Shown here piece after piece: positions 1,134 through 46,536 of a DNA stretch of 64,000 bases (positions within the stretch are counted from its first letter, which is position 1; each line of letters begins with the position of its first letter). The position numbers and the translations under genes were made by a program. The stretch lies in NCBI GenBank assembly GCA_964617815.1, contig CAZTXY010000001.1, forward strand, positions 67,120-131,119, in the 5' to 3' direction. Under the pieces are notes generated by a model. The model was not told where the DNA came from, ran no database searches, and saw only the letters and a list, made by a program, of their open reading frames with translations. This DNA is from an uncultured Candidatus Saccharibacteria bacterium. GTDB taxonomy: Bacteria > Patescibacteriota > Doudnabacteria > UBA920.

Positions 1134-1300
1134 AGCATATCTATTAGAATAAATACTGTCTATAAATAGTATACATATTTTTATTTTCCTTGTAAAATGC
1201 TTTAAATATAGTCATATTAAACAAAAACTTTGTAGAAGAATTATCTACAAAGTTCTACTATATCCACAATCACTCTAATACACCAGTGTATTAGAGTGAT

Positions 1301-2929: not shown

Positions 2930-2932
2930 ATT

Positions 2933-4288: not shown

Positions 4289-4343
4289 GTGAGTAGTTCC
4301 TAGTTCCGCCATCTGGCGGATAGTCTTTAGAAATTATCTAAAA

Positions 4344-5071: not shown

Positions 5072-5135
5072 AATAAAATGCCTAAAAACTTCAAAAACTC
5101 TTAGTTCTAAAATCTAAGATATGGCTGAATTATAA

Positions 5136-5175
5136 CAAAAAACCATTCCAGTGTACACTGGAATGGTTTTTATAA
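5136..5175 (-). terminator. Rho-independent terminator after greA
   Basis: 13-bp perfect palindrome aaccattccagtg/cactggaatggtt, with a T-run on the minus strand. Confidence 0.7.
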
Positions 5176-5178
5176 ACT

Positions 5179-5646
5179 TTAATTAATTGCGACAACTTTA
5201 TAGTCCATGTCGCCGGCTGGAGTACTGACCGTAACCACATCACCCACTTTTTTACCTAGTAAGGCTTTTCCAACCAAAGACTCATTTGAAATTTTTCCTT
5301 CCAAAGGATTGGCTTCATTACTACCAACTATAGCATAAGTTTTTTCGGTGTCTTTAACAGAAATTGTAACTGTTGAACCAATTGAAACTGTATTGTGCTG
5401 ACCAGATGCTGTGATAATTTCAGCATTCTTGATCATATCTTCGATTTCTTGAATTCGACCCTCAATAAATGACTGCTCTTCACGAGCTTGGGCATAGTCA
5501 GCATTCTCAGAAAGATCTCCGTGTGCTGCGGCTTCACGAATGCGCTCAATAACTTCCTTGCGCTTATCGGTGATTAAAAGTTTTAACTCATCATTTAGTT
5601 TCGCCAACCCTTCATGGGTCAGCAGATATTTTTTACTCATGTTCAA
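5179..5646 (-). CDS. greA: transcription elongation factor GreA
   Basis: 155 aa. Has the coiled-coil N-domain and the FKBP-like C-domain typical of GreA. Confidence 0.9.
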   Translation of the reverse strand: MNMSKKYLLTHEGLAKLNDELKLLITDKRKEVIERIREAAAHGDLSENADYAQAREEQSFIEGRIQEIEDMIKNAEIITASGQHNTVSIGSTVTISVKDTEKTYAIVGSNEANPLEGKISNESLVGKALLGKKVGDVVTVSTPAGDMDYKVVAIN

Positions 5647-5705
5647 AATTTAATATATAGTTGCCTTATTGTAATGAAAATTACCAACCATGTCAAGAAG
5701 CGAGC

Positions 5706-6530
5706 CTATTTAGATTCAGCTACCACAATAACATTCTCTAGAAGTTTTGCCACTGTCACAGGCCCAACCCCACCAGGCACAGGTGAAATCCAGGAAGCTT
5801 TTGGCGCAACTGAAGCAAAATCAACATCGCCCGAAATTCCAGCGTTACTTTCCGCAGTGCCAGCATCAATAACCACGGCTCCTTCTTTAACCATATCTCC
5901 TGTAATCAAAGAAACCTTACCAGTACCTGAAACAATCACATCCGCATCGGAGCACAAGCTCGATAAATCACTTGTTGATTGGTCTGCTGTCAATACAGAA
6001 AGGCCTTTTGATGCAAGCAACATCGCAACTGGTTTTCCCACAAGCTCACCCTGCCCCACCACGACAAATTTTTTATTAGTTTGATTCGGCACGGCCGTGT
6101 CCAAAATATGAACAACTGCGTTAGCTGTTGGCGGGACTAAAGAAAAATCGCCCTGATAAAACTTTTTAGTATTTTGCGAATGCAGCACATCCACATCAAG
6201 TTCTGGGGTAATTGCATTTAACGCAGTCTGCCGGTCAATATGATTAGGTAGTGGGAGCTGTAATATCAACCCGCACATATTTGGCAGAAGATTTAATTTT
6301 TGAATTTCCGAAACTAAGTCTTGAGTTGTAATGTCAACTGGAAATTGGCTACGACGAAACTCAATACCAATACTCTCAGCCTTTTTTGCTTTAATGGAAA
6401 CATAAGACAACGAGACTGGGTCATTACCAACAATGACATCGCAAAAAACTGGTTGAAAAGGTAAGCGCTTTACCCGTAACCGTAAGTCCTCTAAAATTTG
6501 ATCTGCAATTTTTTTTCCGTCTATAACCAT
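5706..6530 (-). CDS. folD: bifunctional methylenetetrahydrofolate dehydrogenase/cyclohydrolase
   Basis: Typical FolD sequence. The preferred start is ATG giving MVIDGKK. The ORF track begins at a GTG 12 nt upstream, at 6542. Confidence 0.85.
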   Translation of the reverse strand: MVIDGKKIADQILEDLRLRVKRLPFQPVFCDVIVGNDPVSLSYVSIKAKKAESIGIEFRRSQFPVDITTQDLVSEIQKLNLLPNMCGLILQLPLPNHIDRQTALNAITPELDVDVLHSQNTKKFYQGDFSLVPPTANAVVHILDTAVPNQTNKKFVVVGQGELVGKPVAMLLASKGLSVLTADQSTSDLSSLCSDADVIVSGTGKVSLITGDMVKEGAVVIDAGTAESNAGISGDVDFASVAPKASWISPVPGGVGPVTVAKLLENVIVVAESK

Positions 6531-6539
6531 GAAGTAAGT

Positions 6540-6574
6540 CACTAGGCACTAGCTACTAGGAACTAGCGACTATT
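6540..6574. repeat. tandem heptamer array NACTAGN x5
   Basis: Reads cactagg cactagc tactagg aactagc gactatt. It overlaps the stop codon of the PBP2 gene. Confidence 0.7.
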
Positions 6575-8519
6575 TATTATATCTGTTCTCTGCCCACCAT
6601 TGTAGCGTGCTATTTACAATTGGTACAGCGGCTACATCTCCACCTCCACCTGCCTCAACTAACACTGTCATAACTATTTCTGGATTTTCAAAAGGCGCAT
6701 ATGCTGTAAACCATGCATGAGTACGACTTGGATCACTGCCGTCAAACTGCGAAGTCCCAGTTTTTCCCGCACTACTAATAGGCAAGGTGTTAAGTCTTCT
6801 TCCAGAGCCAGCCAAAATTGTCTGCCTCATTCCTTCTTGAATAATCTTAATATTTTTATCACTGGCAAATTTTTCAATTCCAACTGCTGACTCAAATTTT
6901 TTAATAACTTGTTCGTTTGCATCAACCACTGAGAAGAGCAACTGTGGGCGCATCCCGACTCCATTATTTGCAAATAAAGCTGTCATTGTCGCAATTCGAA
7001 GTGGCGTTACAAGCATATCCCCCTGCCCAATTCCCACATGATAGGTGTCACCTAAATACCACTTTCCTGCAATTGGATCATTTTTATAGTACTCACCTTT
7101 CCACTGCGGATCAGGAACAAGTCCAAATTTTTCCCCTTCTAGATCTAAGCCTGTTGTTTTTTGTAATTCAAACTTACGATAATAATCTGATAACTGAACA
7201 ATCCCCATACCAGAAACCGGCGAACTTGGATGGCCCCCACTCACGGTATAAAAATATATATCGCTACTCTGGGCAATCGCACTCCTAACTGTCATTGGTC
7301 CAAGTCCATCGCGCTTCCACCCATAAAAATTATAACTTTGTGCAGGATTAAACTGATTAGGAATAACCAACACGCCTCGGTCAACTATTGTTGTATTTTC
7401 TGTGACAATGTTATTTTCTAGCGCAGCCAATCCCACCATTGGCTTGACCGTTGAACCAGGTGGGTAGGTTCCACTAATTGCTCTGTCAAAAAGTGGTAAA
7501 GTTTTGTCGGTAATTAAACTTTGATAGTCTGCCTGTGATATTCCATGAGCAAAAAGATTATTATTAAACCCGGGGAGGGAAAGCAGTGCTAACACAGCTC
7601 CAGTTCTTGGATCTAATGCAATAGCTGCTCCACGAATACGAGGAGAAAGCTTGATGAATTCTTGATAGATATGTTCCTGTAATTCTTTGTCTATTGTTAA
7701 ACTAATTGTATTGCCTGGTTTTGGGTCTAACGTTCCAAGAACATTTACCGGACGCCCAAGGGCGTTAACTTCAACACGCTCTTGACCATTGGTACCACGT
7801 AAATATTTTTCATAACTCAACTCAATCCCTGCCTTACCTATATAATCAGAAGCTTGATAGCCTTGGTCGCGAAGATCCTTAAGCTCGTTTTCATTTACGA
7901 TCCCCGCATAACCAAGAACATGTGAAAACATTTCAGGATTTTTATAGTCACGCACAGGAATGCTCTTAATAGAAAAGCCAGGAAATTCAAGAGCTCTTGT
8001 TTCAAATAATATTGCTTCTTGCACCGCGACATCTTGCTTTATAACTACTGGTTCAAGGGAACTATTTCCAGACCGGGCGACAAGAGTTTTTGCCTCTTGT
8101 TCATCAAAGTTAAAAACGCCAGACAAGAGAGTTACTAATTCCGGCACCCCTTCTTTGGGTAAATCGAAAGGGGTTGCGACTAAGTTAAAACTAGCTGTAT
8201 TTTCAGCTAAAGTTTTTCCAAAACGGTCGAGCAGCAGCCCCCGCGGAGCCAAGATTACTCCAGAGCGCAACCGGTTTTCTTCAGCCATAACTCGATAGGT
8301 AGAACCTTCAATAATTTGCAGACCAAAAAGTCTTATAACTAAGACCGAAACAGAAGCAAAAAAGATTCCAATTATCCAAAAGGTGCTTTGCTTCGTCCGT
8401 ATTCCTTCGTAGAAGCCTTCAACTTGAGATAGGCTGTCTACTGCGGCTTCATCAAAATCCAAACCAGAATGCTCTGGTGTTTGGCCAAGGGTTGATTGTG
8501 TCTTGAAAGGATCAGTCAT
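6570..8519 (-). CDS. mrdA: penicillin-binding protein 2 (peptidoglycan D,D-transpeptidase)
   Basis: TM anchor, dimerisation domain, and a transpeptidase domain with the STVK motif. It lies downstream of mreBCD. Confidence 0.85.
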   Translation of the reverse strand: MTDPFKTQSTLGQTPEHSGLDFDEAAVDSLSQVEGFYEGIRTKQSTFWIIGIFFASVSVLVIRLFGLQIIEGSTYRVMAEENRLRSGVILAPRGLLLDRFGKTLAENTASFNLVATPFDLPKEGVPELVTLLSGVFNFDEQEAKTLVARSGNSSLEPVVIKQDVAVQEAILFETRALEFPGFSIKSIPVRDYKNPEMFSHVLGYAGIVNENELKDLRDQGYQASDYIGKAGIELSYEKYLRGTNGQERVEVNALGRPVNVLGTLDPKPGNTISLTIDKELQEHIYQEFIKLSPRIRGAAIALDPRTGAVLALLSLPGFNNNLFAHGISQADYQSLITDKTLPLFDRAISGTYPPGSTVKPMVGLAALENNIVTENTTIVDRGVLVIPNQFNPAQSYNFYGWKRDGLGPMTVRSAIAQSSDIYFYTVSGGHPSSPVSGMGIVQLSDYYRKFELQKTTGLDLEGEKFGLVPDPQWKGEYYKNDPIAGKWYLGDTYHVGIGQGDMLVTPLRIATMTALFANNGVGMRPQLLFSVVDANEQVIKKFESAVGIEKFASDKNIKIIQEGMRQTILAGSGRRLNTLPISSAGKTGTSQFDGSDPSRTHAWFTAYAPFENPEIVMTVLVEAGGGGDVAAVPIVNSTLQWWAENRYNK

Positions 8520-12287: not shown

Positions 12288-13445
12288 TTAACTACCAAAT
12301 AATTTACTGATAATTCGGCCAACCCCACCAAGACTACTTACATCTTTGACTGTGATAACGGCCATGAGTAGTAATAGTAGCAAAAATCCGGCAGTGTTCG
12401 CTAGTTGCTCAAATTTTTGATTATTTCTCTTTCGCCTAATTTTCTCAATAATTAAGAACAAAACTCGACCACCGTCTAAGGCAGGAAAAGGTAAACTGTT
12501 AAGAATAGCTAAATTAAGCGATAAAAAAGCTGTAAACTGGACTAGATAAATAAAGCCCAGATCTGCCACCTGCCCTGTAAGCTGGGCAATTTTCACTGGC
12601 CCACCTAAACTATCTAAGCCCACGCCTTTGCTAAAGAGCTGATACATCCCTGTAAAAATGGCGCCGAGCTGAGAAATAGTTGTTCGGCCACCCTCCCAAA
12701 TAGCTTGCACTACAGGAAACTTTAACTTCCCAATCGTAGCAAGGGCAATTCCTGTTGGTCCCTGACCAGCTGGAGGTTCACTATTCGACTGCACTACTAA
12801 TTTTTGCTCTTGAGTAATACGCTTAATATTAAACTCAAAGGCCTGCCCTTTATTTGAAAAAATATATTCCTTTAACTCTGGTACCGTCGCAAATTTTTCG
12901 CCGTTAACTCCAGTGACAATATCACCAGCCAAGAGTCCGGCTCGACTTGCTGGTGAGTCTGGGCTAACTTCAATAATTGCCAGCTGAGCATCCCTAACTT
13001 GCGCATGTTTTCCTAAATCCTGCGTGTCATCGTAAGCTACTGGCAGTCCATACATGTAGCCTGCACTAAACAGCACCCAAGCGAGTACAACATTCATTAA
13101 TACTCCGCCAAGTAAAGTAAGCAACCTTGGGAAAAAAGGTTTGTTGATAAAACTTTTTGGATCGCTTTCTGATTCATTATTTTCACCAACAATTTTTACA
13201 AACCCGCCAAGTGGAATCCAGTTAATTGAATAAACTGTTTTTTCTTTGTCGATTGGATCTTTGTGACCCCACAGAAATTTAAATTTTCCACCCAACTTTT
13301 GAATACCAACTAAACGTGGCGGAAAACCAAATCCAAACTCATCAACTTTCATGCCACTTTTTTTGGCAATCAAAAAATGCCCTGCTTCGTGGACAAAGAC
13401 TAATACCCCCAAGATTATTATAAAAATCAAAATTGTTATTAACAT
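12288..13445 (-). CDS. rseP: site-2 protease (RseP-like M50 metalloprotease with PDZ domain)
   Basis: Has the HEAGHF zinc motif and a PDZ domain, and is polytopic. Confidence 0.85.
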   Translation of the reverse strand: MLITILIFIIILGVLVFVHEAGHFLIAKKSGMKVDEFGFGFPPRLVGIQKLGGKFKFLWGHKDPIDKEKTVYSINWIPLGGFVKIVGENNESESDPKSFINKPFFPRLLTLLGGVLMNVVLAWVLFSAGYMYGLPVAYDDTQDLGKHAQVRDAQLAIIEVSPDSPASRAGLLAGDIVTGVNGEKFATVPELKEYIFSNKGQAFEFNIKRITQEQKLVVQSNSEPPAGQGPTGIALATIGKLKFPVVQAIWEGGRTTISQLGAIFTGMYQLFSKGVGLDSLGGPVKIAQLTGQVADLGFIYLVQFTAFLSLNLAILNSLPFPALDGGRVLFLIIEKIRRKRNNQKFEQLANTAGFLLLLLLMAVITVKDVSSLGGVGRIISKLFGS

Positions 13446-21714: not shown

Positions 21715-22236
21715 CTATTTTGTTTCAGCACTAGGTGCTTCTTGGGTTACAGAGACATTAATCTCAATTGTACTTACTGTTTCTGACTTGTTCATCACTA
21801 TTGTAATTTGAGAGTCGCCTTTGCTTGCAACCAAAATTTTGCGAGTAGCTTCATTTATATCATTTTCAATTGACCATGAAGCTTTCTTAAAGTAATCCTT
21901 ATATATTTTATAATTCTCGTCTAAAGTTTTTTTGGTTTCAAAAACTCGTGTTGACTGCATCACTCCACTAACAGTAGTGGCATTGTAATTTTGTGTAACT
22001 TTTGCTCCCGACTCAAGTGGTAAATCGGTTGGAAACTTTTCTGGGAGTTTGCTTGACTCGACAGCAGTTTGGCTTACCTGAATTTTTGGCGTTTGGTTAT
22101 TTACCGACTTCCCACCAACATCCACCTTGTCACTATTTTTATAAAACTTATTAAAAGCCAACGCCCCGCCTGCTAAAATAACCATAAAGATTATCAACCA
22201 AACGAATTTTTTTGTTTGGGGTGATTGTTCGAGCAT
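21715..22236 (-). CDS. hypothetical membrane-anchored secreted protein
   Basis: 173 aa with an N-terminal TM helix. Confidence 0.5.
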   Translation of the reverse strand: MLEQSPQTKKFVWLIIFMVILAGGALAFNKFYKNSDKVDVGGKSVNNQTPKIQVSQTAVESSKLPEKFPTDLPLESGAKVTQNYNATTVSGVMQSTRVFETKKTLDENYKIYKDYFKKASWSIENDINEATRKILVASKGDSQITIVMNKSETVSTIEINVSVTQEAPSAETK

Positions 22237-22304
22237 ATTAATCTCCTTATTAAATGAACTTTTGTTTCTTAATTTTGTAAAACTTTATAAATAATTATAA
22301 CACC

Positions 22305-22358
22305 TTTATCAAAAATATCCAAAAATCAAAGGAGGGAGTCGTTTCAAACGACTCCCTC
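22305..22358 (-). terminator. Rho-independent terminator ending the high-GC two-gene unit
   Basis: 10-bp perfect stem gagggagtcg/cgactccctc followed by a T-rich run on the minus strand. Confidence 0.7.
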
Positions 22359-22447
22359 ACAGGTTCTGTAGTCCCTACCTAAGACAGGCAGACACCGGTT
22401 GCTGCACAGATCCTTCCTGTCAGTAGAATGATCATGCAAATCCTCCT

Positions 22448-22633
22448 TCATGAATTTGTTACTCCACCCACGGCACCACTGACCTTGGGTGTGTGATGAT
22501 GATTTACTCCCCCTCTGGGAAGCCTTCTTGATGCAAGCTTCTGCATCTGTTCTTCGAGCCGTCTACGTGCTTCCTTGCTGCCGTTTTTCTTTGCAACAGC
22601 TCGAGCCACGTTCTTCCCCCTCTTAATGTTCAT
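22448..22633 (-). CDS. small basic protein (61 aa), high-GC
   Basis: GGGGGG 4 nt upstream of the ATG. Arg/Lys-rich. It directly follows the Cys-rich ORF. Confidence 0.4.
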   Translation of the reverse strand: MNIKRGKNVARAVAKKNGSKEARRRLEEQMQKLASRRLPRGGVNHHHTPKVSGAVGGVTNS

Positions 22634-22642
22634 ACGGCCCCC

Positions 22643-23113
22643 CTAGTTGCGGACAAAGTACGACCGAGCCGAGCACCTCGGACCCGTAGAATCGAATGTC
22701 TCCTTTGGCGATGTGCTCGAGGACTTCGGTGAGACCTCAACTCGCCTGGTGTATGTCCCATTCTTGAAATCATCAGGAGTGAGTGCGCCGCTGTCGCGTG
22801 CAGCTTTGAATTCCGTGCAGTCGAAGGCCAAAAGCGTCTCCCTAGCCCCTCGAATCCCGCAAGCCGGGCACTGGTGACGATGCCTTCGCGCTGAGATCGT
22901 CTCCTGGTGACTGCCTATTTCCTTGCTTCTCGTCTCGCACTCATTCTCGCAAAAATGAGTCGCCAGAAATCCGAATGATCCGAAGACTTTACAGTCTTCG
23001 CATCGAAAACCCCAAGCATTGACGTGACAGTTACCATGGCTGGCAACACGAAATGGTATTGAATTACGCATTGGGCGTGCGCCAGTCGACTCGCTCGCAG
23101 TTCCTGATGACAT
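22643..23113 (-). CDS. Cys-rich zinc-finger-like protein, high-GC
   Basis: CxxC pairs at CEDC, CENEC and CPAC. AGGAGG sits immediately upstream of the ATG. Confidence 0.5.
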   Translation of the reverse strand: MSSGTASESTGARPMRNSIPFRVASHGNCHVNAWGFRCEDCKVFGSFGFLATHFCENECETRSKEIGSHQETISARRHRHQCPACGIRGARETLLAFDCTEFKAARDSGALTPDDFKNGTYTRRVEVSPKSSSTSPKETFDSTGPRCSARSYFVRN

Positions 23114-23164
23114 TCCATCTCCTCCTGCTGAAAATAGAATCCACGCCGTCTTTGACCCACAAAA

Positions 23165-23207
23165 TGTCGGACAAAAGAAAACTCGCTACTTTTTGAAGTA
23201 GCGAGTT
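23165..23207 (-). promoter_or_regulatory. terminator-like hairpin in the 5' leader of the Cys-rich gene (possible attenuator)
   Basis: 11-bp stem aactcgctact/agtagcgagtt. On the minus strand it is followed by tttcttttg, 52 nt before the ATG. Confidence 0.4.
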
Positions 23208-23418
23208 AACCTTTGTACAAAATTCTGCGTTTATATCAGTACGAGGTTGCTACTTCATTTTCCCAAAACTTAATGACACCAACAATGGAGGCCATTGCTA
23301 GAGTAGTGTAAGTAATTTGGTTACGATGAGTAGCTATATTCATATTTGTAAATCAAAATAAGCTTAAACAAAGTCCAAACATCTGTCAAATAATTTATCC
23401 ACAGCCTTAAACTACTAA

Positions 23419-23548
23419 CTAGTTCCGCCAGCCGGCGAATAGTGACTAGTGACAAGGATTTTGCTATAATAAATCCATATTAATATGTTCTGCGTGCTTT
23501 GTATCTTTACTTGGCTACTTGGAACTGTCCGCCGGCTGGCGGAACTAG
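23419..23548. repeat. 130-bp element with perfect 19-bp terminal inverted repeats; contains the lemA promoter
   Basis: ctagttccgccagccggcg at 23419-23437 is the reverse complement of cgccggctggcggaactag at 23530-23548. The extended -10 tgctataat is inside the loop. Confidence 0.85.
23462..23470 (+). promoter_or_regulatory. extended -10 (TGnTATAAT) promoter for lemA-htpX
   Basis: tgctataat lies 89 nt upstream of the lemA ATG. Confidence 0.5.
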
Positions 23549-23558
23549 GAACTAAAAT

Positions 23559-24104
23559 ATGATTTTCATCTATATTATCGGAGCTTTGGCTATCATTGCC
23601 ATCGTGCTCTACAACTCACTTATCAAAAGCCGTAACCGCGTTGATGAAGCTTGGAGCGATATTGAAGTCCAGCTCAAACGTCGCTATGACCTCATCCCCA
23701 ACTTAGTTGAAACAGTTAAAGGTTACGCTAAGCAAGAAAGTTCTGTCCTTGAGAACGTCACACGTGCTCGTTCTGCTGCTATGGGTGCTGGTTCTATGGA
23801 AGAAAAACTTAAAGATGAAAACCAGCTTTCTGGGGCGTTAAAAAGCCTGTTTGCAGTTGCTGAAAGTTATCCTGACTTGAAATCAAACCAAAACTTTATG
23901 CAAATGCAAAGCGATCTCACCGACACTGAAGATAAAATTCAAGCTAGCCGTCGCTTCTACAACGGCACTGTTCGTGACTTTAATACTAAACTTCAAGTCT
24001 TCCCAACTAATATTTTTGGAAGCATGATGGGTTTTAAAGTTCGCGAATTCTTCGATATCGACGAGAAAGGCCCAGAAGGCCAAAACGTCAAAGTCCAGTT
24101 TTAG
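23559..24104 (+). CDS. lemA: LemA family protein
   Basis: N-terminal TM helix plus a conserved LemA domain. Confidence 0.85.
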   Translation: MIFIYIIGALAIIAIVLYNSLIKSRNRVDEAWSDIEVQLKRRYDLIPNLVETVKGYAKQESSVLENVTRARSAAMGAGSMEEKLKDENQLSGALKSLFAVAESYPDLKSNQNFMQMQSDLTDTEDKIQASRRFYNGTVRDFNTKLQVFPTNIFGSMMGFKVREFFDIDEKGPEGQNVKVQF

Positions 24105-24193
24105 AAAAACTGAATTAAGAAGTAAGAATAAAGGATTATGAATTTATTACAATATCATAATTCATACTTCATCATTCCTAATCTTTCTCACTT

Positions 24194-25096
24194 ATGATCA
24201 CCTACAGCGAAATTGCCAAAAATAAACGCGAGTCAATTTACTTAATTTTTGGCTTTCTGATTGTAATTTCTGCACTCGGCTGGGTTTTCGCGCAAGTTTA
24301 CGATAATCCATTCATCCTTATCGGCGCTGTGGCCTTTAGCTTTGTAAGCGCCTTCATTTCCTACTTCTTTTCAGACTCAATCACCCTAACCCTTTCCAAA
24401 GCCAAGGAAGTTTCTAGGCAAAGCGCCCCAGAACTGTTTCGACTTGTTGAAAACTTAACCATTAGCGCAGGTCTGCCACTTCCGCGAATTTATATTATAG
24501 AAGACAGTGCCCCCAATGCATTTGCCACTGGCCGTGACCCAAAGCACGCCGTGGTTTGTGTAACCACAGGAATTTTACAAAAACTTGAAAAAACTGAACT
24601 TGAAGGGGTGCTAGCCCATGAACTTTCACATATTGGAAACTACGACATTCGGGTAATGACACTTGTAGTTGTACTAGTTGGAACTCTGACACTAATGTCT
24701 GACTGGTTTTTGCGCGCCTCTTTTTTTGGTGGCAAACGAAGTCGCGACGACAAAGGTTTAGGACAATACTTAGGATTAATTGGTTTAATCCTCGCACTAC
24801 TCTCTCCTATAATAGCAACCTTAATTAAACTGGCTGTTAGTCGAAAAAGAGAATATTTAGCCGACGCCAGTGGTGCTCTACTTACTCGCTACCCCGAAGG
24901 CTTAGCACGCGCTTTAGAAAAAATTGGAAATGACCAAGAACCACTGGAAGTTGCCAACAAAGCCACTGCACATTTATATATTATCAATCCGCTCAAAGCC
25001 CACAGTGCTGACAGCACTGGCTGGTTTGCGGGATTGTTTAACACTCACCCACCTCTTGCCGACCGCATAAAAAAACTTCGCGAAATGAATTTATAA
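24194..25096 (+). CDS. htpX: zinc metalloprotease HtpX (M48)
   Basis: HELSH zinc motif and 4 TM helices. Confidence 0.9.
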   Translation: MITYSEIAKNKRESIYLIFGFLIVISALGWVFAQVYDNPFILIGAVAFSFVSAFISYFFSDSITLTLSKAKEVSRQSAPELFRLVENLTISAGLPLPRIYIIEDSAPNAFATGRDPKHAVVCVTTGILQKLEKTELEGVLAHELSHIGNYDIRVMTLVVVLVGTLTLMSDWFLRASFFGGKRSRDDKGLGQYLGLIGLILALLSPIIATLIKLAVSRKREYLADASGALLTRYPEGLARALEKIGNDQEPLEVANKATAHLYIINPLKAHSADSTGWFAGLFNTHPPLADRIKKLREMNL

Positions 25097-25103
25097 AAAT
25101 GTA

Positions 25104-25135
25104 GAGGCCGTCCCGAAGTGAATCGGGACGGCCTC
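25104..25135. terminator. bidirectional terminator hairpin between htpX (+) and the paralog-1 gene (-)
   Basis: 13-bp perfect stem gaggccgtcccga/tcgggacggcctc. Confidence 0.65.
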
Positions 25136-25149
25136 ATTGCTGGAAAGCG

Positions 25150-25710
25150 CTATTCTGCACTCTCCGGTTTCGCCAGTTGCCGCGCGTTGTACTCGTCCAC
25201 ACAGCGATCGAAGAACTCATCTGCCCTCTCTGGGCCCGAATGAAAATCTGAAAAGCTGAACTGCCCAGCGCAAATGATCTCTAGGTGCTCATGAGATTTT
25301 ACGGTAAGACGCGAAGGACTGAGAGTCCCCGAAGCCATCTCGTCGTAAATCTTCTTGCCTTTGGCAAACAGCTCCTCACGCTGGAGTACACGAACGTGCC
25401 TTTGCATATGCCAAAGGTACGACCGATACCTTTCACGGATAACTCGCTCAACGCGGACTTCCCCCTCGCTCCAGTGAGTGGGAATTTTCGGCATTGAGTC
25501 AAGAGCGATCTCAAAGCCCTTTGCGATCTCGGCCCAGAAAGCCACACTCTCTGATTCCGGATGGAACCCTTTGCTCACAAGCGCCGCAACCATATAAACG
25601 TAAGGGTCAGTCCGACGCTCAAAGTTTATGGTCATAAGTTTGAAAGTCACAAACCAAGTCGCGAAGGCTGTGACTCCGATAATCAAAAAAACGCTGCCAA
25701 TCTCAAACAT
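25150..25710 (-). CDS. membrane-anchored protein of unknown function, paralog 1
   Basis: Start trimmed to MFEIGSV, with GGAGG 8 nt upstream. It has an N-terminal TM helix. It is about 40% identical to the protein at 27373..27951, sharing GFHPE and YxEMASGTLxPSxL. Confidence 0.7.
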   Translation of the reverse strand: MFEIGSVFLIIGVTAFATWFVTFKLMTINFERRTDPYVYMVAALVSKGFHPESESVAFWAEIAKGFEIALDSMPKIPTHWSEGEVRVERVIRERYRSYLWHMQRHVRVLQREELFAKGKKIYDEMASGTLSPSRLTVKSHEHLEIICAGQFSFSDFHSGPERADEFFDRCVDEYNARQLAKPESAE

Positions 25711-25716
25711 GGCGAA

Positions 25717-25738
25717 TTCCTCCGGCTGAAATGTCGAC
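25717..25738 (-). promoter_or_regulatory. conserved 22-nt 5' leader including the SD (copy 1)
   Basis: ttcctccggctgaaatgtcgac is identical to 27959-27980. Confidence 0.7.
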
Positions 25739-25743
25739 GCCCT

Positions 25744-25772
25744 AGTATAGTTATTCTTGCAATCCGAGTCAA
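25744..25772 (-). promoter_or_regulatory. sigma70-type promoter TTGACT-17-TATACT for paralog 1
   Basis: On the minus strand, ttgact then 17 nt then tatact. Confidence 0.7.
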
Positions 25773-25788
25773 TGCCTAACTTTGTAAT

Positions 25789-25837
25789 ATAAAAAAATCG
25801 AGGGGCAGACAAAACGCGAAAGCGTTCGCCTGCCCCT
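25789..25837 (-). terminator. Rho-independent terminator after purC
   Basis: GC-rich stem ggggcag...ctgcccc followed by ttttttt on the minus strand. Confidence 0.7.
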
Positions 25838-25842
25838 TTGCC

Positions 25843-26691
25843 TTACCGAATTGGATGTTTGAAAGCAAACCGACTGGTTTGCTCAGCGACCCAAGCATAG
25901 TTCTCCGCCAGCTTTTCCAAGTCACCGTCAGTGACCTTGGCCAAATCGCGGTAGACTTGCTTGTCTTTGAATTCTTGCTCATCGCGGAAGCGAATCCGCC
26001 AGGAGTCGTTGGTGATGTCGTCGGCAACCAGGATCTTCCCTGTAGCCGAATCGTACCCACACTCGATCTTCATGTCCCACAGGACAATTTCGAGTTCGTA
26101 CAACGCCACCTCCAGAATGCAAAACACGGCGATGGCAAGGTTGCCCAACTTCTGGACGTCATCGGCCGAAACAGTTCGGCCGCCGCGAGTCACAATTGCC
26201 GGAAGTTCACAGAGGAATCCTTGTTCCAAAGGCTTCGAAGCCACGTACATGTCCCAAGTTTGAGACACGTAGTCGTAGACGACCATCGGATCGTGATTAG
26301 CGTCATCCTTGAGGTAAAACTCAGGAGTCAATACTTCAAAGCGAGTGCCTTGAGCAACGTCGGGGTGGCGTTTGCAGTGCGACCCCGTAGCCAACCGCCG
26401 AATCACAATCTCAGCGGGGATCATGTCAACGCGATGCGCAATCATCCCCGTCAATCCAAACTCCCGAATGAAGTGAGTCGGCACACCGTGGTCGTTGAGA
26501 TGCCCCAAACAGTTCATGCTCGTTTGGTTGCACCACACGCCCTTCCCAGGCAAGGTATCGTGCCGAGCGCCGTCACCAGCGGTGATGTCATCTTTCTGGA
26601 AGATGACGACTCTGTTCGGATTTTCTGAAGTTCGGACCACTTTGGTCTTTCCTTCAATGAGAATCCTGCTCTTGTTCATCAAGTCATCCAT
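25843..26691 (-). CDS. purC: phosphoribosylaminoimidazole-succinocarboxamide (SAICAR) synthase
   Basis: LIEGKTKVV, GVPTHFI and KDDANHDPMV align with E. coli PurC. The start is MDDLMNK, with GGAGGG upstream. High-GC. Confidence 0.9.
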   Translation of the reverse strand: MDDLMNKSRILIEGKTKVVRTSENPNRVVIFQKDDITAGDGARHDTLPGKGVWCNQTSMNCLGHLNDHGVPTHFIREFGLTGMIAHRVDMIPAEIVIRRLATGSHCKRHPDVAQGTRFEVLTPEFYLKDDANHDPMVVYDYVSQTWDMYVASKPLEQGFLCELPAIVTRGGRTVSADDVQKLGNLAIAVFCILEVALYELEIVLWDMKIECGYDSATGKILVADDITNDSWRIRFRDEQEFKDKQVYRDLAKVTDGDLEKLAENYAWVAEQTSRFAFKHPIR

Positions 26692-27214
26692 CTTGCTTCC
26701 CTCCGTTTGAACTTTGAACCCCCACTTGCACTGACTTCCGATGAGTTTCGGAATATGTGAGAAGGTTACTGCTAACTGCTGGGTCCACCAGACCAACAGC
26801 AGTGCAAGCTGCTAAGCCGGCGTTGTGCAGTCCAGCTGAGTCAAGACCCAGCACGCAAACTGGCACACCTGGCGGCATTCGGACCATCGAAAGAAGTGAA
26901 TCCATGCCAGAAAGAATGTCAGCGCTTAGCGCCACACCAAAAACCTGCGCTCGGTTTGAAACATGCGAAGCAATTGCTCCGGGTAAGGCCGCCGCCATTC
27001 CAGCAACAGCAATAAACACGACCGTACCAGTCTGGAGCTTGTGCTCGCAGTACTGGCGCAAATCTTCGGGATTGCGGTGAGCGGAAATGATCGAAAGTTC
27101 CCAAGTGACTCCAACCCCGTTGAGGATTGGAAACAACTGAGACAATTTTACCATCTCCAAATCACTTGCACTCCCCAAAACAACAACCACGCTATGGCAA
27201 GCATCCAGAGACAC
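26684..27214 (-). CDS. purE: PurE-family mutase/carboxylase (N5-CAIR mutase or AIR carboxylase)
   Basis: VVVLGSASD, SAHRNP and AGMAAALPG align with PurE. The GTG start has AAGGAGG 5 nt upstream. Its TGA overlaps the purC ATG in ATGGATGA. Confidence 0.85.
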   Translation of the reverse strand: MSLDACHSVVVVLGSASDLEMVKLSQLFPILNGVGVTWELSIISAHRNPEDLRQYCEHKLQTGTVVFIAVAGMAAALPGAIASHVSNRAQVFGVALSADILSGMDSLLSMVRMPPGVPVCVLGLDSAGLHNAGLAACTAVGLVDPAVSSNLLTYSETHRKSVQVGVQSSNGGKQDG

Positions 27215-27266
27215 AACGCCCTCCTTGCTTCGCAGAGTTGCTCCTTGGAGCAGTAGAACCTGCCCT

Positions 27267-27295
27267 ATAGTAGAACACTGGCTTAAAAAAGGCAA
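27267..27295 (-). promoter_or_regulatory. candidate promoter TTGCCT-17-TACTAT for purE-purC
   Basis: It sits between the upstream terminator and the purE SD. Confidence 0.5.
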
Positions 27296-27309
27296 GATTC
27301 TCCTTCTTT

Positions 27310-27357
27310 TTTATTAAAAATGAAATGCGGCCGTCTCGATTTCTCGAAACGGCCGCC
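27310..27357 (-). terminator. Rho-independent terminator after paralog 2
   Basis: Stem gcggccgt...acggccgc followed by a T-run on the minus strand. Confidence 0.65.
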
Positions 27358-27372
27358 TAAAACCAAAGCCGA

Positions 27373-27951
27373 CTAGATGTCAGATTCACCCTCGCCCTCA
27401 TCCTCCGCACCGGTGGCTTGACTTGCCAAGTACTTCTCGACGCACTCATCGAAGAACTCAGAAAGCCCTCCCAAGCCAGAATGAACAGCGGAAAAACCGA
27501 AGTTCCCCGCATCCATGGCCCCTGTCAGTTCATTGGACTTTGTTCGCAGTTGGGACGGCTTCAACGTTCCCGAAGCCATCTCGTTGTAAAGACCCGTGGC
27601 CTTTACAAACATTTCCTCGTACCTGAGTAAGCTAATCCGACCCTTCAGTCCATTGAAGTAGAGGCCGTAAACATCACGTGCGTTCTGCTCGGCCAGCCGT
27701 TTCTCCTTAGACCAAGTGTCAGGAATTGGGCGCAAAGAATTGAAAGCCTTGCCAAACCCCTCTGCTTGCTTGGTCCAGAACTCAATGCTCCTCTGCTCGG
27801 GATGAAAGCCACTTGCCACAAGGGCCGAAAGCATGTCCATGCACGGCTTGTGCTTCCCTTGAAAGTGCCACTTGGCAAGTTGCCACGTTGCCATACACAC
27901 CACCATTACAAGAATAGTAGTGACTACTGCGACCTGGTCAGTCTGTAACAT
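27373..27951 (-). CDS. membrane-anchored protein of unknown function, paralog 2
   Basis: 192 aa with an N-terminal TM helix. GGAGG lies 7 nt upstream. It is the paralog of 25150..25710. Confidence 0.7.
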   Translation of the reverse strand: MLQTDQVAVVTTILVMVVCMATWQLAKWHFQGKHKPCMDMLSALVASGFHPEQRSIEFWTKQAEGFGKAFNSLRPIPDTWSKEKRLAEQNARDVYGLYFNGLKGRISLLRYEEMFVKATGLYNEMASGTLKPSQLRTKSNELTGAMDAGNFGFSAVHSGLGGLSEFFDECVEKYLASQATGAEDEGEGESDI

Positions 27952-27958
27952 CGCTTAT

Positions 27959-27980
27959 TTCCTCCGGCTGAAATGTCGAC
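27959..27980 (-). promoter_or_regulatory. conserved 22-nt 5' leader including the SD (copy 2)
   Basis: Identical to 25717-25738. Confidence 0.7.
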
Positions 27981-27985
27981 CACCA

Positions 27986-28014
27986 AGTATAGTTTAAAAA
28001 AACGCCAAAGTCAA
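27986..28014 (-). promoter_or_regulatory. sigma70-type promoter TTGACT-17-TATACT for paralog 2
   Basis: On the minus strand, ttgact then 17 nt then tatact. It matches the paralog-1 promoter hexamers exactly. Confidence 0.7.
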
Positions 28015-28032
28015 TAACCTTGGCGCGAAAAA

Positions 28033-28494
28033 CTACATAAATTTTTTAATGGTATCCAAGCGAAATCCTCGCGCTTGCAGACGTTGCCCCAGTTTTTGTT
28101 TCTCTAACCCTTTCCCAATTTTCTCAACCAACCGCTTGGCTACGACCAACTCATCTTCTAAACTAAAAAAATCTGACAAAGCCCGTTCAATCAAAACACT
28201 CGCCAGCCTACGCTCTAGTAATTTTTTTTTCAACATATAAAACCCATAGCTTTTATATTTTTTACAATTATCGACAAAAATTTCCGCATACCGAATGTCA
28301 TCAATCAAGCGTTCCTCAGTTAACTGAGAAATGACCTCATCAATAACTTTTTGGTTATAACCCCGTTCTTGCATTTTATGACGAATCTCCCCTTCAGTTC
28401 GTAATTTTATATTTAACAAAAACAAAGCATAGTTATGCCCATGCGAAGTTGAGTCAGGCTCTCTGAGTGGCGATGATTTTTTCTTAAAATACAT
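28033..28494 (-). CDS. recX: RecX-like regulatory protein
   Basis: 153 aa with repeated helical motifs. The RYAEIF and GFYMLKKKL segments resemble RecX. Confidence 0.55.
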   Translation of the reverse strand: MYFKKKSSPLREPDSTSHGHNYALFLLNIKLRTEGEIRHKMQERGYNQKVIDEVISQLTEERLIDDIRYAEIFVDNCKKYKSYGFYMLKKKLLERRLASVLIERALSDFFSLEDELVVAKRLVEKIGKGLEKQKLGQRLQARGFRLDTIKKFM

Positions 28495-42438: not shown

Positions 42439-44673
42439 TTATTGTCCGCACTTTCCAGAGGAATACTCTAAATAATAACGTGAACCAGTAACAACATAAT
42501 TGCGGGTTTGGCAATAAGTCGCGCTTGCCGCACAATCATTGGTCACATTACTTCCAGGTATACAGGCTGTTTGAGCACCGCTCGTAAAAGGACATTCCCA
42601 AAAGAATTTTCCTGGACAAGAATTACTTGATCTCCAAGGGCCTCCAGGACCTTCACCAGCATTGTAGGCAGCCAAAATATTCCCAATATTATTCCCAATA
42701 TGTGGTTGGTTTGGAATTTGTGATAAATATTTAGTACCACAAAAAATATTTGCTCGCGGGTCACAAGCATCACTAAACGAACCGCATCCTAATCCAGCCC
42801 ATGTTCCTGGTATAATTTGCATTAAACCTTTAGCCCCAGCGGAGCCGTATCCAGTCTGACAATTTCTCCAACCACTTTCTTTTTGAATTACTGCCCTAAT
42901 TAAACTAATATCAACACTATATGCGCGGGAAGCCTCAGCAACAATTCTATCTAAATCGCCATGATTACAAGTAGCAGTTCCCCCTAAATCACATCCGCCA
43001 CTACAAACACCACCGCCAGAACCCTGAACAATTACACACTGTCCTGATCCAGGACCAGGCTCAACACCGCCACCCCCACCTGTCCCGCCACCGCCGAAGA
43101 GTCCTCCGCCGCCAGCACTAAGCGATAACTTTCCACAAATTTCGCTGAGAGCTTGAAATTTTTCTAAACCGGGAACAAAATAAGTAGCGCCGGGAACGTA
43201 AGAAGTTATATTGCCTGCTGTAGAAATCCACTGCGCTCCAGGCAAATTACAAATGACAACAAAAAATAATGCAATCCAAAGAGCTATCCCTATTAAGTAT
43301 ATCGCATTTAGCACTCCTGTGATAAGCATTTTTATCCACCCCATTGGCTGACGAATCCCAATAATAGAACCAACTAAAAATGCATCTAAAACAATTAGCG
43401 GGAGAAAGCCGATGGGGATAAGCACAATAGAAAGTAAACACAAAATGCATATAGCAATCAACCACACCGCCATATCGTCAAGGCCAGACTTAATGACAGC
43501 CTTAGCACTTTCGATAGCAATATTAATAGCAACACCAACACCGGGTGCAACATTGGCGGCAGTAGCCGCTGTTTCAGCAACTGCAGCTGCGGCATCAATA
43601 GCAATATCGGCACCTAACTTAGCAGTCTCTGTAACTTTACCAAGACCACTTGCTTCTTCTATCTTATGTTTGCGATTTGCAATGTCAGCACCTGCATCAA
43701 TTACAGCGCCACCAATGGACAATGCCCCAGAAATATTCGCAGCTTTACTCCCAGCTTCTGCCCCCGCTACACCAGCTTTTATAGCATTACCAGTAATTCC
43801 AACTCCGGCTTTAGCAGCTGTTCCAGCCACTTCTGCAGCCTCAGCTCCACCACGAATAGCTCCTGCAGCCGCACGTTCGGCCCCGGCTCCCCGGCCCACA
43901 GTCCGAGCAGCTCCGCCTAAGCGAGCTGCATCTTCAACACCTTCTTCAGCTAACTCTTCGCCTGCTTTAACAGATGCTTTTCCCGGAGCACCGGGCTGCC
44001 CTTCAACAGTTTCTGATTTTGGAACGTCATCTGGAGACTCAGCCTTTGCTTTTGCTTGATCACGCTCTTTTACGCGCTTATCGTAATCTTTCTTGTGACG
44101 CTCTGCAAATTCAACCGGGCCTTCCTTTTCCTCTTTTTGTTGCCCTTGTTGTGCGTCGTTTCCTGTTTCTGCTTTTTTTTCTGAACCATCTCCTTCTTCA
44201 TCCGGACTTTTTAGCCGATCTTCAGTTAAACTTTGATCATTTTTTTGTGCTTGGTCGTCTAGAGCATTTTCTTTAGAAAAAGATTCATTGTTCGAAGAAG
44301 TTTGTTGTTGATTAATATTTTGATTATCATTGAAAGCTGATGCATTATCTCCGCCTGTATTGCTAGGTGTGGTCTTGCCACGAAAAGGACTAACTGTGCC
44401 AGGTTGTGAAGAGGACCCCCCATTTCCTTTTTGCTTAAAATCAACTTGAGTAACCTTAGTTTTTACTTTTGGATCATTAGAAACAACCGTGACAGGTTTA
44501 TCACTTTCTGCATCTCCACTTTTTTTTGGCACAACGCGCATAGCAGCGCGGGGCTGGCCATCACCCTGACTGCCTCCTTGAATAACAGAAAAGCCTGGCT
44601 GCTCTCCAGCCGATTGTTCTTCGTTATCTACATCGGAGTCGGTTGGCAGTCTTGCCAGGTTATCATTCGCCAT
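42439..44673 (-). CDS. VirB1-like lytic transglycosylase fusion protein
   Basis: Disordered N-terminal region, Ala-rich region, TM helices and a Gly-rich linker. The Cys-rich C-terminal domain carries SLT motifs QKESGW, GLMQI and AYNAG. Confidence 0.7.
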   Translation of the reverse strand: MANDNLARLPTDSDVDNEEQSAGEQPGFSVIQGGSQGDGQPRAAMRVVPKKSGDAESDKPVTVVSNDPKVKTKVTQVDFKQKGNGGSSSQPGTVSPFRGKTTPSNTGGDNASAFNDNQNINQQQTSSNNESFSKENALDDQAQKNDQSLTEDRLKSPDEEGDGSEKKAETGNDAQQGQQKEEKEGPVEFAERHKKDYDKRVKERDQAKAKAESPDDVPKSETVEGQPGAPGKASVKAGEELAEEGVEDAARLGGAARTVGRGAGAERAAAGAIRGGAEAAEVAGTAAKAGVGITGNAIKAGVAGAEAGSKAANISGALSIGGAVIDAGADIANRKHKIEEASGLGKVTETAKLGADIAIDAAAAVAETAATAANVAPGVGVAINIAIESAKAVIKSGLDDMAVWLIAICILCLLSIVLIPIGFLPLIVLDAFLVGSIIGIRQPMGWIKMLITGVLNAIYLIGIALWIALFFVVICNLPGAQWISTAGNITSYVPGATYFVPGLEKFQALSEICGKLSLSAGGGGLFGGGGTGGGGGVEPGPGSGQCVIVQGSGGGVCSGGCDLGGTATCNHGDLDRIVAEASRAYSVDISLIRAVIQKESGWRNCQTGYGSAGAKGLMQIIPGTWAGLGCGSFSDACDPRANIFCGTKYLSQIPNQPHIGNNIGNILAAYNAGEGPGGPWRSSNSCPGKFFWECPFTSGAQTACIPGSNVTNDCAASATYCQTRNYVVTGSRYYLEYSSGKCGQ

Positions 44674-44691
44674 AAATTTGTACTAACCTAA

Positions 44692-46536
44692 TTATCCTGC
44701 AAACTGGTCTTTGCTTTCTTGAATTTCCAGTAACTGTTTCGGGTCTGTTGTAATTATTTGGTCTTCCATGTAGGAAGCGTAAATTTTGATAGCCGCATGC
44801 TTAAGTCCAGCAAAAAATATTCCTTCACCAACATCACTTTCAAGTAATAAATATTTCTCACCTTCAGTTAAAAAGAAAGTTTCAGCCACAATATCCACAG
44901 ACGCAGGACTTTGCTTAAGAAGTAACTGAATTGAAGAGTTTGTGACAATTGGTTTGCCGTACGGACTACTCATAAAATCTGCGACATCCTGAGTGATTGT
45001 TGTAAGACCAAGATAATATTTACGAGCGCGCTTGGCAATTCCATACACAAACCGAGCGGAGTCTTCGTGTTGCATAAGTATCCAAGCTTCATCAAGTACT
45101 AAGATACGGCGCTTCAGCTCGCTTCTAACCACATTCCAAATATGTCCTAAAATTAAATACATTGCCACTGGCCTTAGCTCGTCTTCTAAATCGCGAATTG
45201 AAAAAACTAAAAGCTGATTATTTAAAACAACGTTGCTTGGCTGGTTAAGAAGCCCAGCAAAAGTTCCTTCGGTAAACTTCGAGAGACGCTGAGCTAAACT
45301 TTCCGCACCCACCATATCACCTAAGACAGAAACTAAATCACTCATCACCGGATAGTCAGTGGTCTTAAGTTCCATGCCAGGAGTAATATCTTTGTTCGCA
45401 TACGCCTGCCAAATAGCTTTATCAAGTAGCGCTTCTTCAGTTGGATCTAGTTTACCTAAAACTAAATTCATCAGCCCCAAAAGTCCAATCACCGCACTGC
45501 GCATGGTGTCACTACTGTCTTCACCTTCAAGACCAATAGGTAAGTCAAAAGGATTAATGCGGTAGTCTGAGTTAAGCGAGATGCTTAAATATGTTCCACC
45601 AACCGCGTCGGCTAAATGTTTATATTCATTTTCAGGATCCACAATTAAAACTTCAATGCCAACCATCAAAGAACGCAGGACTTCTAATTTCACCGCATAC
45701 GATTTTCCGGCACCAGACTTAGCAAAAATTACAAAATTAGCATTTTCCATCTTAAACCGGTCAAATAAAATTAAACCGTTGTTGTGCCGGTTAATCCCGT
45801 AAAGTACTCCATCATTTCCAGTTAAATCCGAAGACACAAAAGGAAAAGTTGTCGAAAGGGGGCTGGTATTTAGATTATTTGCTACACCTAAATCGTCTAA
45901 TTGCATTGGCAATGTCGAGTTAAACCCAGGTTGCATTTGCATTAAGGCTCTCTTTGTAACCACGAGCTTCGCACCAAGTGCACTTTCAAGAATAGTTGAC
46001 TCTTTGTCGAGTTCGCGAAGATCTTTAGCATACAAAGTAAAATACAAAGCAAAACGAAAATACTTTTCAGTACCTTGCAATAAATTATCGCGCAATTCCT
46101 CGACGTCGTGATATCCTGTTTCCAGTAATGGATCACGTACCAAACCTTTTTCTCGGTTAATCATCATTTGTGAACCAATCTCTCCAACCTTCCCTTTCAA
46201 CTTTCTCAAGATTGTTCCAGAGTCAATTGGGTAAATAAACATTGAGACATCTAATGCCCCTTGAGAGTTGATAACAAACGACAACCAGTTCGAAGATAAA
46301 TAACGTGGGTAGGTTAAGACAAAAAAACTACGCGCAAATTTTCCATTCAACTCAAAATGGTCAGCCTCAAACTTCAAGCTTGCAGGCGCTATAAGGTCTT
46401 TAAGCGAAGTTAAACCTTGCTTATAGCTATCTTCAAGAGTACTAAGCTCTTTTCGAGTCGCCTCTTTACTCTTGCGCTCCTCAAGCTCATGCTTTTTCGC
46501 TTCTAATTGTTCTTCTGAAAGGTTAAACCAAGACAT
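44692..46536 (-). CDS. VirB4/TraC-like conjugal transfer ATPase, C-terminal ATPase part
   Basis: Walker A FAKSGAGKS and the Walker B region VLDEAW. Family-level resemblance to VirB4/TrsE. Confidence 0.8.
   Translation of the reverse strand: MSWFNLSEEQLEAKKHELEERKSKEATRKELSTLEDSYKQGLTSLKDLIAPASLKFEADHFELNGKFARSFFVLTYPRYLSSNWLSFVINSQGALDVSMFIYPIDSGTILRKLKGKVGEIGSQMMINREKGLVRDPLLETGYHDVEELRDNLLQGTEKYFRFALYFTLYAKDLRELDKESTILESALGAKLVVTKRALMQMQPGFNSTLPMQLDDLGVANNLNTSPLSTTFPFVSSDLTGNDGVLYGINRHNNGLILFDRFKMENANFVIFAKSGAGKSYAVKLEVLRSLMVGIEVLIVDPENEYKHLADAVGGTYLSISLNSDYRINPFDLPIGLEGEDSSDTMRSAVIGLLGLMNLVLGKLDPTEEALLDKAIWQAYANKDITPGMELKTTDYPVMSDLVSVLGDMVGAESLAQRLSKFTEGTFAGLLNQPSNVVLNNQLLVFSIRDLEDELRPVAMYLILGHIWNVVRSELKRRILVLDEAWILMQHEDSARFVYGIAKRARKYYLGLTTITQDVADFMSSPYGKPIVTNSSIQLLLKQSPASVDIVAETFFLTEGEKYLLLESDVGEGIFFAGLKHAAIKIYASYMEDQIITTDPKQLLEIQESKDQFAG

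Follow-up and report, generated by a model that had tools for sequence, protein, structure and literature searches.

The 64,000-nt stretch of DNA analysed here (hereafter the window; positions 67,120 to 131,119 of contig CAZTXY010000001.1, GenBank assembly GCA_964617815.1) derives from an uncultured Candidatus Saccharibacteria bacterium placed by GTDB in the lineage UBA920 of Doudnabacteria, phylum Patescibacteriota. It carries two homologous genes, designated A and B, which bracket purE and purC and encode orphan proteins with a predicted N-terminal membrane anchor. Each of the two genes is preceded by a promoter-like sequence and a short leader that begins with the same 22 nt, and each is followed by an intrinsic terminator (Table 1). 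The identical 22 nt behind TTGACT-17-TATACT, pointed out in the initial annotation of this DNA, are present at both coordinates, and Pfam searches confirmed that the genes lying between the paralogs are purC and purE.

Table 1. Coordinates of the A/B cassettes, purEC and the Cys-rich gene operon in the window
Feature	Position	Strand	Description
B promoter	27986..28014	-	TTGACT-17-TATACT; -35 box 28014-28009, -10 box 27991-27986
B leader	27952..27980	-	Predicted 29-nt 5' untranslated region, GTCGACATTTCA GCC GGAGGAA ATAAGCG; 22-mer 27959-27980
Gene B	27373..27951	-	192-aa orphan protein, N-terminal membrane anchor and all-helical domain (predicted); paralog of A
B intrinsic terminator	27327..27356	-	GCGGCCGTTTCGAGAAATCGAGACGGCCGC followed by a T-run; related to the A terminator
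Predicted purEC promoter	27267..27295	-	TTGCCT-17-TACTAT; read from the sequence; conserved in L002
purE	26684..27217	-	AIR carboxylase family; GTG start; Pfam PF00731, E = 1.7e-37, 128.7 bits
purC	25843..26691	-	SAICAR synthetase; 8-nt overlap with purE; Pfam PF01259, E = 1.3e-47, 163 bits
A promoter	25744..25772	-	TTGACT-17-TATACT; -35 box 25772-25767, -10 box 25749-25744
A leader	25711..25738	-	Predicted 28-nt 5' untranslated region, GTCGACATTTCA GCC GGAGGAA TTCGCC; 22-mer 25717-25738
Gene A	25150..25710	-	186-aa orphan protein, N-terminal membrane anchor and all-helical domain (predicted)
A intrinsic terminator	25104..25135	-	GAGGCCGTCCCGATTCACTTCGGGACGGCCTC followed by a T-run
Split leader copy	23114..23172	-	GTCCGACATTTT, insert of about 24 nt, ATTTTCAGCAGGAGGA, 6 nt, then ATG of the Cys-rich gene
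Cys-rich gene	22643..23113	-	156-aa orphan protein; 8 conserved Cys, C-x2-C twice
Basic gene	22448..22633	-	61-aa highly basic orphan protein; apparently co-transcribed with the Cys-rich gene; terminator 22358-22332

The 22-mer GTCGACATTTCAGCCGGAGGAA occurs exactly twice in the window, against an expectation of 0; no third site was found there at up to three mismatches, and any match was absent from all 100 shuffled sequences. It sits 5 nt 3' of TTGACT-17-TATACT, and the ATG follows 6 nt (A) or 7 nt (B) further on. Both promoters agree with the sigma-70 consensus TTGACA/TATAAT at 10 of 12 positions with a 17-nt spacer, and their hexamers are kept in the orthologs. The -35 box of B falls within the loop of the recX terminator hairpin (28026-28002), and a terminator also stands 3' of purC, before the A promoter.

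The homology of the A and B proteins is clear, since their alignment is gap-free over 183 aa with 37% identity (E = 3e-44; about 40% in the initial annotation) and includes the common motifs GFHPE, FW and Y.EMASGTL.PS.L..KS. The codon-aligned coding sequences are 53% identical, with 65% of the shared fourfold-degenerate sites different. Their longest identical run is 16 nt, and no stretch of identity between the cassettes exceeds the 22 nt of the leader. Over the 56 positions between the start of the -35 box and the last base of the 22-mer, the cassettes agree at 40 (71%), all of them in ATTGACT, AACTATACT and the leader, and 92% upstream identity is reached over 36 nt only. The 17-nt promoter spacers match at 4 positions, and the bases preceding GTCGAC are AGGGC in one cassette versus TGGTG in the other. 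The earlier description of the upstream DNA as nearly identical was therefore overstated, as only the leader and the two promoter hexamers are alike. The related claim, that non-coding DNA has been kept much more closely than the coding sequence, is borne out by the invariance of the 12-mer GTCGACATTTCA and of the Shine–Dalgarno (SD) sequence GGAGGAA.

The terminators of A and B share GGCCGT..CGA...TCG.GACGGCC followed by CATTTTTA.TAAA, and their alignment scored above all 2000 of 2000 shuffles. As the terminators and coding sequences are related, and not the promoter alone, the whole transcription unit was duplicated, and this happened long ago. A recent segmental duplication or a single conversion tract is ruled out by the dissimilar promoter spacers, the divergence of the coding sequences and the fourfold-degenerate sites. 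The longer recent duplication with high protein identity, considered in the initial annotation as a source of the leader identity, was likewise not found, synonymous sites being saturated. The leader as an N-terminal coding extension is ruled out by the different distance to the ATG (28 versus 29 nt) and by an in-frame TAA just 5' of the B start codon.

To compare the leaders, A and B orthologs were taken from four to five related metagenomic lineages with pairwise synonymous divergence (dS) of 0.15–0.55. The leader of A reads GTCGACATTTCA, GCC, GGAGGAA and TTCGCC (12-mer, triplet, SD and spacer to the ATG) in the window, L002, L018 and L010, and has GCT as the triplet in L001 and L020. That of B, with the same 12-mer and SD, has GCC and ATAAGCG as the triplet and spacer in the window, GCT and TTAACC in L002, AGT and TTCGCC in L018, and ACT and TTCGCT in L020. 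Thus GTCGACATTTCA and GGAGGAA underwent no change in either paralog among all related lineages recovered; the triplet and the SD–ATG spacer vary. With the synonymous tree lengths (0.71 for A and 0.75 for B) taken as the neutral rate, about 28 changes would be expected at these 19 positions versus none seen (P ~1e-12). An internal control is provided by the approximately nine changes in the B leader, all of which fall in the 10 positions outside the 12-mer and SD ((10/29)^9, ~7e-5); since recombination makes the lineages less than independent, this control was given more weight than the Poisson figure. In the A promoter, the sequence from the -35 box to the ATG is identical in the window, L002, L018 and L010, and the DNA 5' of the -35 box varies, with a large insertion in L020. 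L020 (6161-6300) and L001 (9840-9930) carry an insertion of some 70 nt, built from repeats of CTTAGGAAGGGAGTCTTAG-like units, in the interval that separates the purC terminator from the A promoter; the window lacks it. Altogether, the pattern indicates purifying selection on the 12-mer and SD, which best explains the alignments, rather than a recent duplication or one conversion tract.

Gene conversion or other recombination could also keep the leaders alike, by tracts between A and B or by the spread of alleles, with the 12-mer having no specific function. Recombination at the locus is indeed frequent. Between the window and L002, recX and the B promoter are 98–100% identical, compared with 40% for the first 50 nt of B. 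This tract (28750-27952 in the window) looks like a recent recombination event ending at the leader or the start codon, and the N-terminal membrane segment of B is hypervariable. The triplet GCC is found in both leaders of the window, the other B leaders having GCT, AGT or ACT, and the stretch ATTCGCC between the SD and the ATG of A occurs also in B of L018. However, conversion alone predicts identity within a genome and drift between genomes. The reverse is seen at the variable leader positions, which differ both between paralogs and between orthologs, the triplets of A and B being unlike each other in L002, L018 and L020; the 12-mer and SD, for their part, do not change from lineage to lineage. 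Moreover, the identity between the cassettes ends exactly at the edges of functional elements, which a conversion tract would have no reason to respect. We therefore regard conversion as an unlikely cause of the pattern; raised as an alternative in the initial annotation, it is not needed to explain the data, although it may have acted over short tracts.

The conserved block begins six bases after TATACT with a G in both genes, at the expected transcription start, so that the predicted +1 falls at the G of GTCGAC, as judged from spacing only. The 12-mer is non-palindromic beyond GTCGAC and has no inverted partner nearby. The leaders fold less stably than shuffled sequences (z = +1.1 and +1.4), and the consensus of eight leader sequences (alifold) gave -0.43 kcal/mol with 0 compensatory pairs. 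At the gathering threshold, Rfam recognised two tRNAs only in the window, and a search of 22200-28200 at E <= 1 returned nothing overlapping the leaders. A structured RNA leader (riboswitch, attenuator or thermometer) was thus rejected, with no Rfam match, no stable fold and no covariation. Promoters of extracytoplasmic function (ECF) sigma factors and of the T7-like type, compared by eye, were rejected as well, because A and B do not have the same base in front of GTCGAC and the motifs fail to match. The initial annotation had proposed a cis-regulatory element under selection, such as an operator or RNA leader. The conservation pattern supports the selected element, and the RNA leader, in the structured sense, does not stand. 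In view of the lack of RNA structure and of a palindrome or partner, we infer recognition of the primary sequence, either where transcription starts or at the mRNA 5' end.

Operators and other regulon motifs can overlap the transcription start, as do repressor boxes located at +1. The A/B block resembles them in that a short sequence at +1 to +12 is conserved over co-located units independently of the coding sequence, and differs from them in that the 12-mer is non-palindromic beyond GTCGAC, lacks a second half-site and is known from only two or three sites.

The conserved parts could also form a generic expression cassette that needs no trans-acting factor, in which the start of the transcript favours promoter escape and a stable 5' end and the leader keeps a strong ribosome-binding site open, both genes having equal constitutive output of proteins that would be required in equal amounts. 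The near-consensus promoters, the strong SD at canonical spacing, the weakly structured leaders, the separate terminator of each gene and the lack of an evident regulator gene in the island all agree with this possibility. Such needs, however, can usually be met by many sequences, and here 12 consecutive positions outside the SD show no change in either paralog in any lineage, while the next three nucleotides and the SD–ATG spacer change freely. A 12-mer-like half is, in addition, kept upstream of the Cys-rich gene at about 40 nt from the SD, with no promoter in front. A purely generic cassette is therefore conceivable but rather improbable.

This additional copy, described in the initial annotation as a weaker version of the leader, proved to be real and split. 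In the window, CGACATTT has three copies and TTTCAGCNGGAGG three exact ones, each set being located 5' of A, B and the Cys-rich gene and on the same strand as the gene. In the split copy, ATTTT flanks the insert on both sides; its two halves are identical in L002, and the insert differs there at several positions. No sigma-70-like promoter was found 5' of the split leader, which directly abuts the terminator hairpin (23207-23180) of a small open reading frame of 35 aa (23343-23236, minus strand) with host-like GC content. The Cys-rich protein is unrelated to A and B, and was found in two clusters only; its AlphaFold2 model, built from 2 sequences, is unusable (mean predicted local distance difference test score, pLDDT, of 36). 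An 18-aa hydrophobic mini open reading frame (22434-22378, minus strand) follows the basic gene and precedes the terminator at 22358-22332.

The occurrence of the same leader elements before a non-homologous gene could point to a propagated, mobile promoter–leader module that was copied onto different genes, perhaps within the organism that donated the GC-rich DNA; the three are all orphan genes rich in G+C, with G+C content at third codon positions (GC3) of 0.56–0.61 versus 0.32–0.42 in host genes. This origin appears very unlikely to us, since the terminators and coding sequences of A and B are homologous too, as expected for duplication of a whole unit, and no copy of the module was found in the GC-rich orphan island of L001, described below, or elsewhere in the public collections scanned. 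The 71% identity over 56 nt is also below the criterion of at least 80% over 50–100 nt used for putative mobile promoters (PMC3488235).

The collections of genome, viral and metagenome contigs were scanned with the exact pattern TCGACATTTCAGCNGGAGGA. The promoter with the leader was not found in them beyond the orthologs of A and B, and about 10 other matches of the pattern, which appear to be due to chance, fall in unrelated and mostly GC-rich sequence that has no promoter. A genome-wide or cross-species motif was therefore rejected, as far as the collections scanned are concerned. As to enrichment of the motif upstream of other genes, suggested earlier as a check, three copies were found within 5 kb of the window, and the collections scanned contained no other promoter-associated copy.

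Among described elements, the A/B block is best compared with the Start-Associated Sequences (SAS) of Cluster K mycobacteriophages, 13-bp sequences (GGGATAGGAGCCC) located 3–7 nt from the start codon in 11–19 copies per phage genome (PMC3203893). Both are asymmetric conserved sequences that combine an SD core with conserved bases unable to pair with 16S rRNA; both are found a few nucleotides 5' of the ATG, in one orientation, at different gene families and essentially nowhere else, and for both the function and binding partner are unknown (PMC3203893). In contrast to SAS, the A/B block is 22–29 nt long, has another sequence, is present in two or three copies and belongs to a bacterial chromosome; it has a sigma-70 promoter of its own, with the predicted +1 as its first base, and is conserved best in GTCGACATTTCA, 5' of the SD, rather than around the SD. 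Judged by position and content, SAS appear to be the closest relatives in kind, although these differences place the A/B block outside them. Putative mobile promoters, defined as upstream sequences of 50–100 nt with at least 80% identity (PMC3488235), are similar in that related promoter-proximal DNA precedes at least two genes of the same genome, one of them, the Cys-rich gene, non-homologous. The A/B case differs by the patchy identity, the duplication of the whole cassette, and a third copy that is split and lacks a promoter.

A third parallel is offered by the morons described by Hendrix and colleagues, autonomous promoter–gene–terminator units of atypical composition in prophages. Genes A and B are likewise self-contained, with their own promoter and terminator and a G+C content unlike that of the surrounding genome. 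However, no phage genes are located nearby, no match to PHROG families or viral contigs was obtained, and A and B occupy a fixed chromosomal locus between recX and htpX that is common even to a distant relative.

The A and B proteins each contain one N-terminal hydrophobic stretch (Kyte–Doolittle 19-residue means of 1.96 and 2.14) followed by basic residues; under the positive-inside rule, the helical domain probably faces the cytoplasm. The AlphaFold2 model of A (pLDDT 78) has five helices and no informative fold. No family match for A or B was found in Pfam, NCBIfam, PHROG, PADLOC or the sequences of PDB, nor any match to a specific fold. A profile search among 5.8 billion proteins recovered six clusters, and one further, distant homolog came from an exhaustive HMMER search of 1.84 billion representatives. 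Orthologs of B are 74–87% identical. The ratios of nonsynonymous to synonymous divergence (dN/dS) are 0.19–0.50 for A and 0.32–0.52 for B, compared with about 0.1 for purC and 0.03 for the clpC-like gene, which marks A and B as real, fast-evolving genes. A is truncated to 149 aa in L002 (10547-10996) and B to 151 aa in the L020–L022 lineage (L020 2315-2770); both appear to be decaying or dispensable in some lineages, consistent with dN/dS of 0.2–0.5.

The island containing A and B lies between recX and htpX, with the clpC-like gene and lemA also in the flanks. The G+C content of the window is about 39%, compared with about 51% at 25,100-28,020 and 50–58% in a second islet at 22,350-23,200. GC3 is 0.45–0.65 in A, B, purE, purC, the Cys-rich gene and the basic gene, and 0.32–0.42 in gatA, gatC, lemA, htpX, recX, the clpC-like gene and comF. 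The same locus was found in independent assemblies from ENA, Logan and JGI, which rules out an assembly artefact as the source of the island. In relatives the genes usually follow each other as recX, B, purH on the opposite strand, purE, purC, A and htpX; purH, encoding 539 aa, lies between the B terminator and the purE promoter in L002 (7223-8842), L018 (2059-3678) and L020 (2962-4581). The window lacks purH, with the junction near 27,300-27,309, and its island keeps only purE and purC. In L001 (JGI 3300045396, a 22.7-kb contig), positions 1-6800, beyond purH, are occupied by at least 6.7 kb of orphan genes with 53–58% GC in place of B and recX; their single match is a weak one to the Macro domain, and no copy of the leader motif was detected in this island.

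The leader of purEC, about 45 nt long, is unrelated to that of A and B. PurE and PurC score above the gathering thresholds of the Pfam families AIRC and SAICAR_synt and below the cutoffs of both NCBIfam equivalogs, and are thus divergent. Homologs of purC outside the clade are at most 49% identical, the nearest named ones including metagenome-assembled genomes of Patescibacteria and Parcubacteria and PAICS-type enzymes. In the distant relative L024 (GC 36%), the recX–htpX interval contains a 172-aa orphan protein with a transmembrane segment and helices and a 189-aa homolog of A and B (27% and 33% identity), and neither pur genes nor GTCGACATTTCA were found at this locus. Since the homolog occurs there with no pur genes, the bracketing of purEC by A and B looks incidental; no functional tie between the pair and the pur genes was found, and purEC has its own promoter and leader. 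The 172-aa protein was not accepted as a third family member (hhalign E = 0.036, probability 1.4%), its architecture being suggestive only. The sequence AATTTTGAAACAGACT occurs twice in L024 (3366-3380 and 3484-3500), in the intergenic region 5' of the A/B homolog, and may be a leader or promoter element of that lineage.

Near the second islet, two GC-rich inverted-repeat arms of 32 nt (23419-23450 and 23517-23548), separated by 66 nt and complementary at 84%, enclose the lemA promoter predicted at 23442-23470 (GTGACT-17-TATAAT) and have the same orientation in L002 (~12770-12900). They could be an operator pair or a cruciform- or inverton-like element. Elsewhere in the window, the region 42439-46536 (minus strand) encodes a 744-aa Gly/Ala-rich membrane protein with a Cys-rich, transglycosylase-like C-terminal end, adjoining a 614-aa ATPase; by eye, the two resemble a VirB4-like module of type IV secretion. 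The GC peak at 43-44 kb stems from the low-complexity Gly/Ala region.

The explanation that we prefer, and consider to be probably correct with modest confidence, is that A and B are old duplicate units whose selected signals include a 12-mer read by a trans-acting factor, giving both paralogs the same control. Each unit is complete and autonomous, consisting of a near-consensus sigma-70 promoter, an unstructured 5' untranslated region of about 28 nt, the gene and an intrinsic terminator. After duplication the coding sequences diverged to saturation, while purifying selection kept the -35 and -10 hexamers, the 12-mer GTCGACATTTCA from the predicted +1 onwards, the SD and the terminator stems. 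The putative factor, a protein or an RNA, would recognise the 12-mer by sequence rather than by structure. Both paralogs would then be subject to the same expression control, which in a rearranged form may extend to the operon of the Cys-rich and basic proteins. Such control would serve co-regulation, or a matched dosage of two proteins that may work together.

Several observations weigh against this explanation. Only two or three copies of the element are present, all within 5 kb, and no regulon can be demonstrated. In the third copy, which has no recognisable promoter, the 12-mer-like half probably does not coincide with a +1. Part of the conservation is explained, with no trans-acting factor involved, by the generic need for a strong SD and an untranslated region free of structure. 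Recombination is active at the locus, as recX and the B promoter, 98–100% identical between the window and L002, are about 88% identical elsewhere; the Poisson figure is optimistic, since the lineages are not fully independent. The A promoter is invariant, including its spacer, in four lineages, and a recent sweep of this segment, instead of constraint acting on every base, could be responsible.

One could further speculate that GTCGACATTTCA at +1 to +12 is the site of a lineage-specific regulator that switches the GC-rich orphan genes together in an ultrasmall, probably host-dependent bacterium. The Cys-rich protein with its C-x2-C motifs and the 61-aa basic protein, whose operon itself carries the rearranged leader copy, would be the only candidates in sight, being, speculatively, the only conceivable nucleic-acid binders in the GC-rich set; A and B could be two membrane-anchored subunits of one complex with matched dosage. 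As a whole, this scenario is a tentative one and on the improbable side.

The A/B block is a new instance of a familiar kind of element, a shared promoter-proximal cis element kept after duplication. It rests on a statistically sound observation, gives no pointer to a new mechanism and represents a real but local regulatory signal. Its scope is narrow, covering three genes, with the motif and the protein family restricted to a single clade of genus rank that was seen in a few metagenomes. If the proposed explanation is true, the locus would be a clean natural example of which parts of a transcription unit outlast the saturated divergence of duplicated coding sequences: the promoter hexamers, 12 nt at the 5' end of the transcript, the SD and the stems of the terminators. 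Together with three orphan genes, the defined 12-mer would then offer an entry point to gene regulation in a poorly understood, uncultured lineage of bacteria with small genomes.

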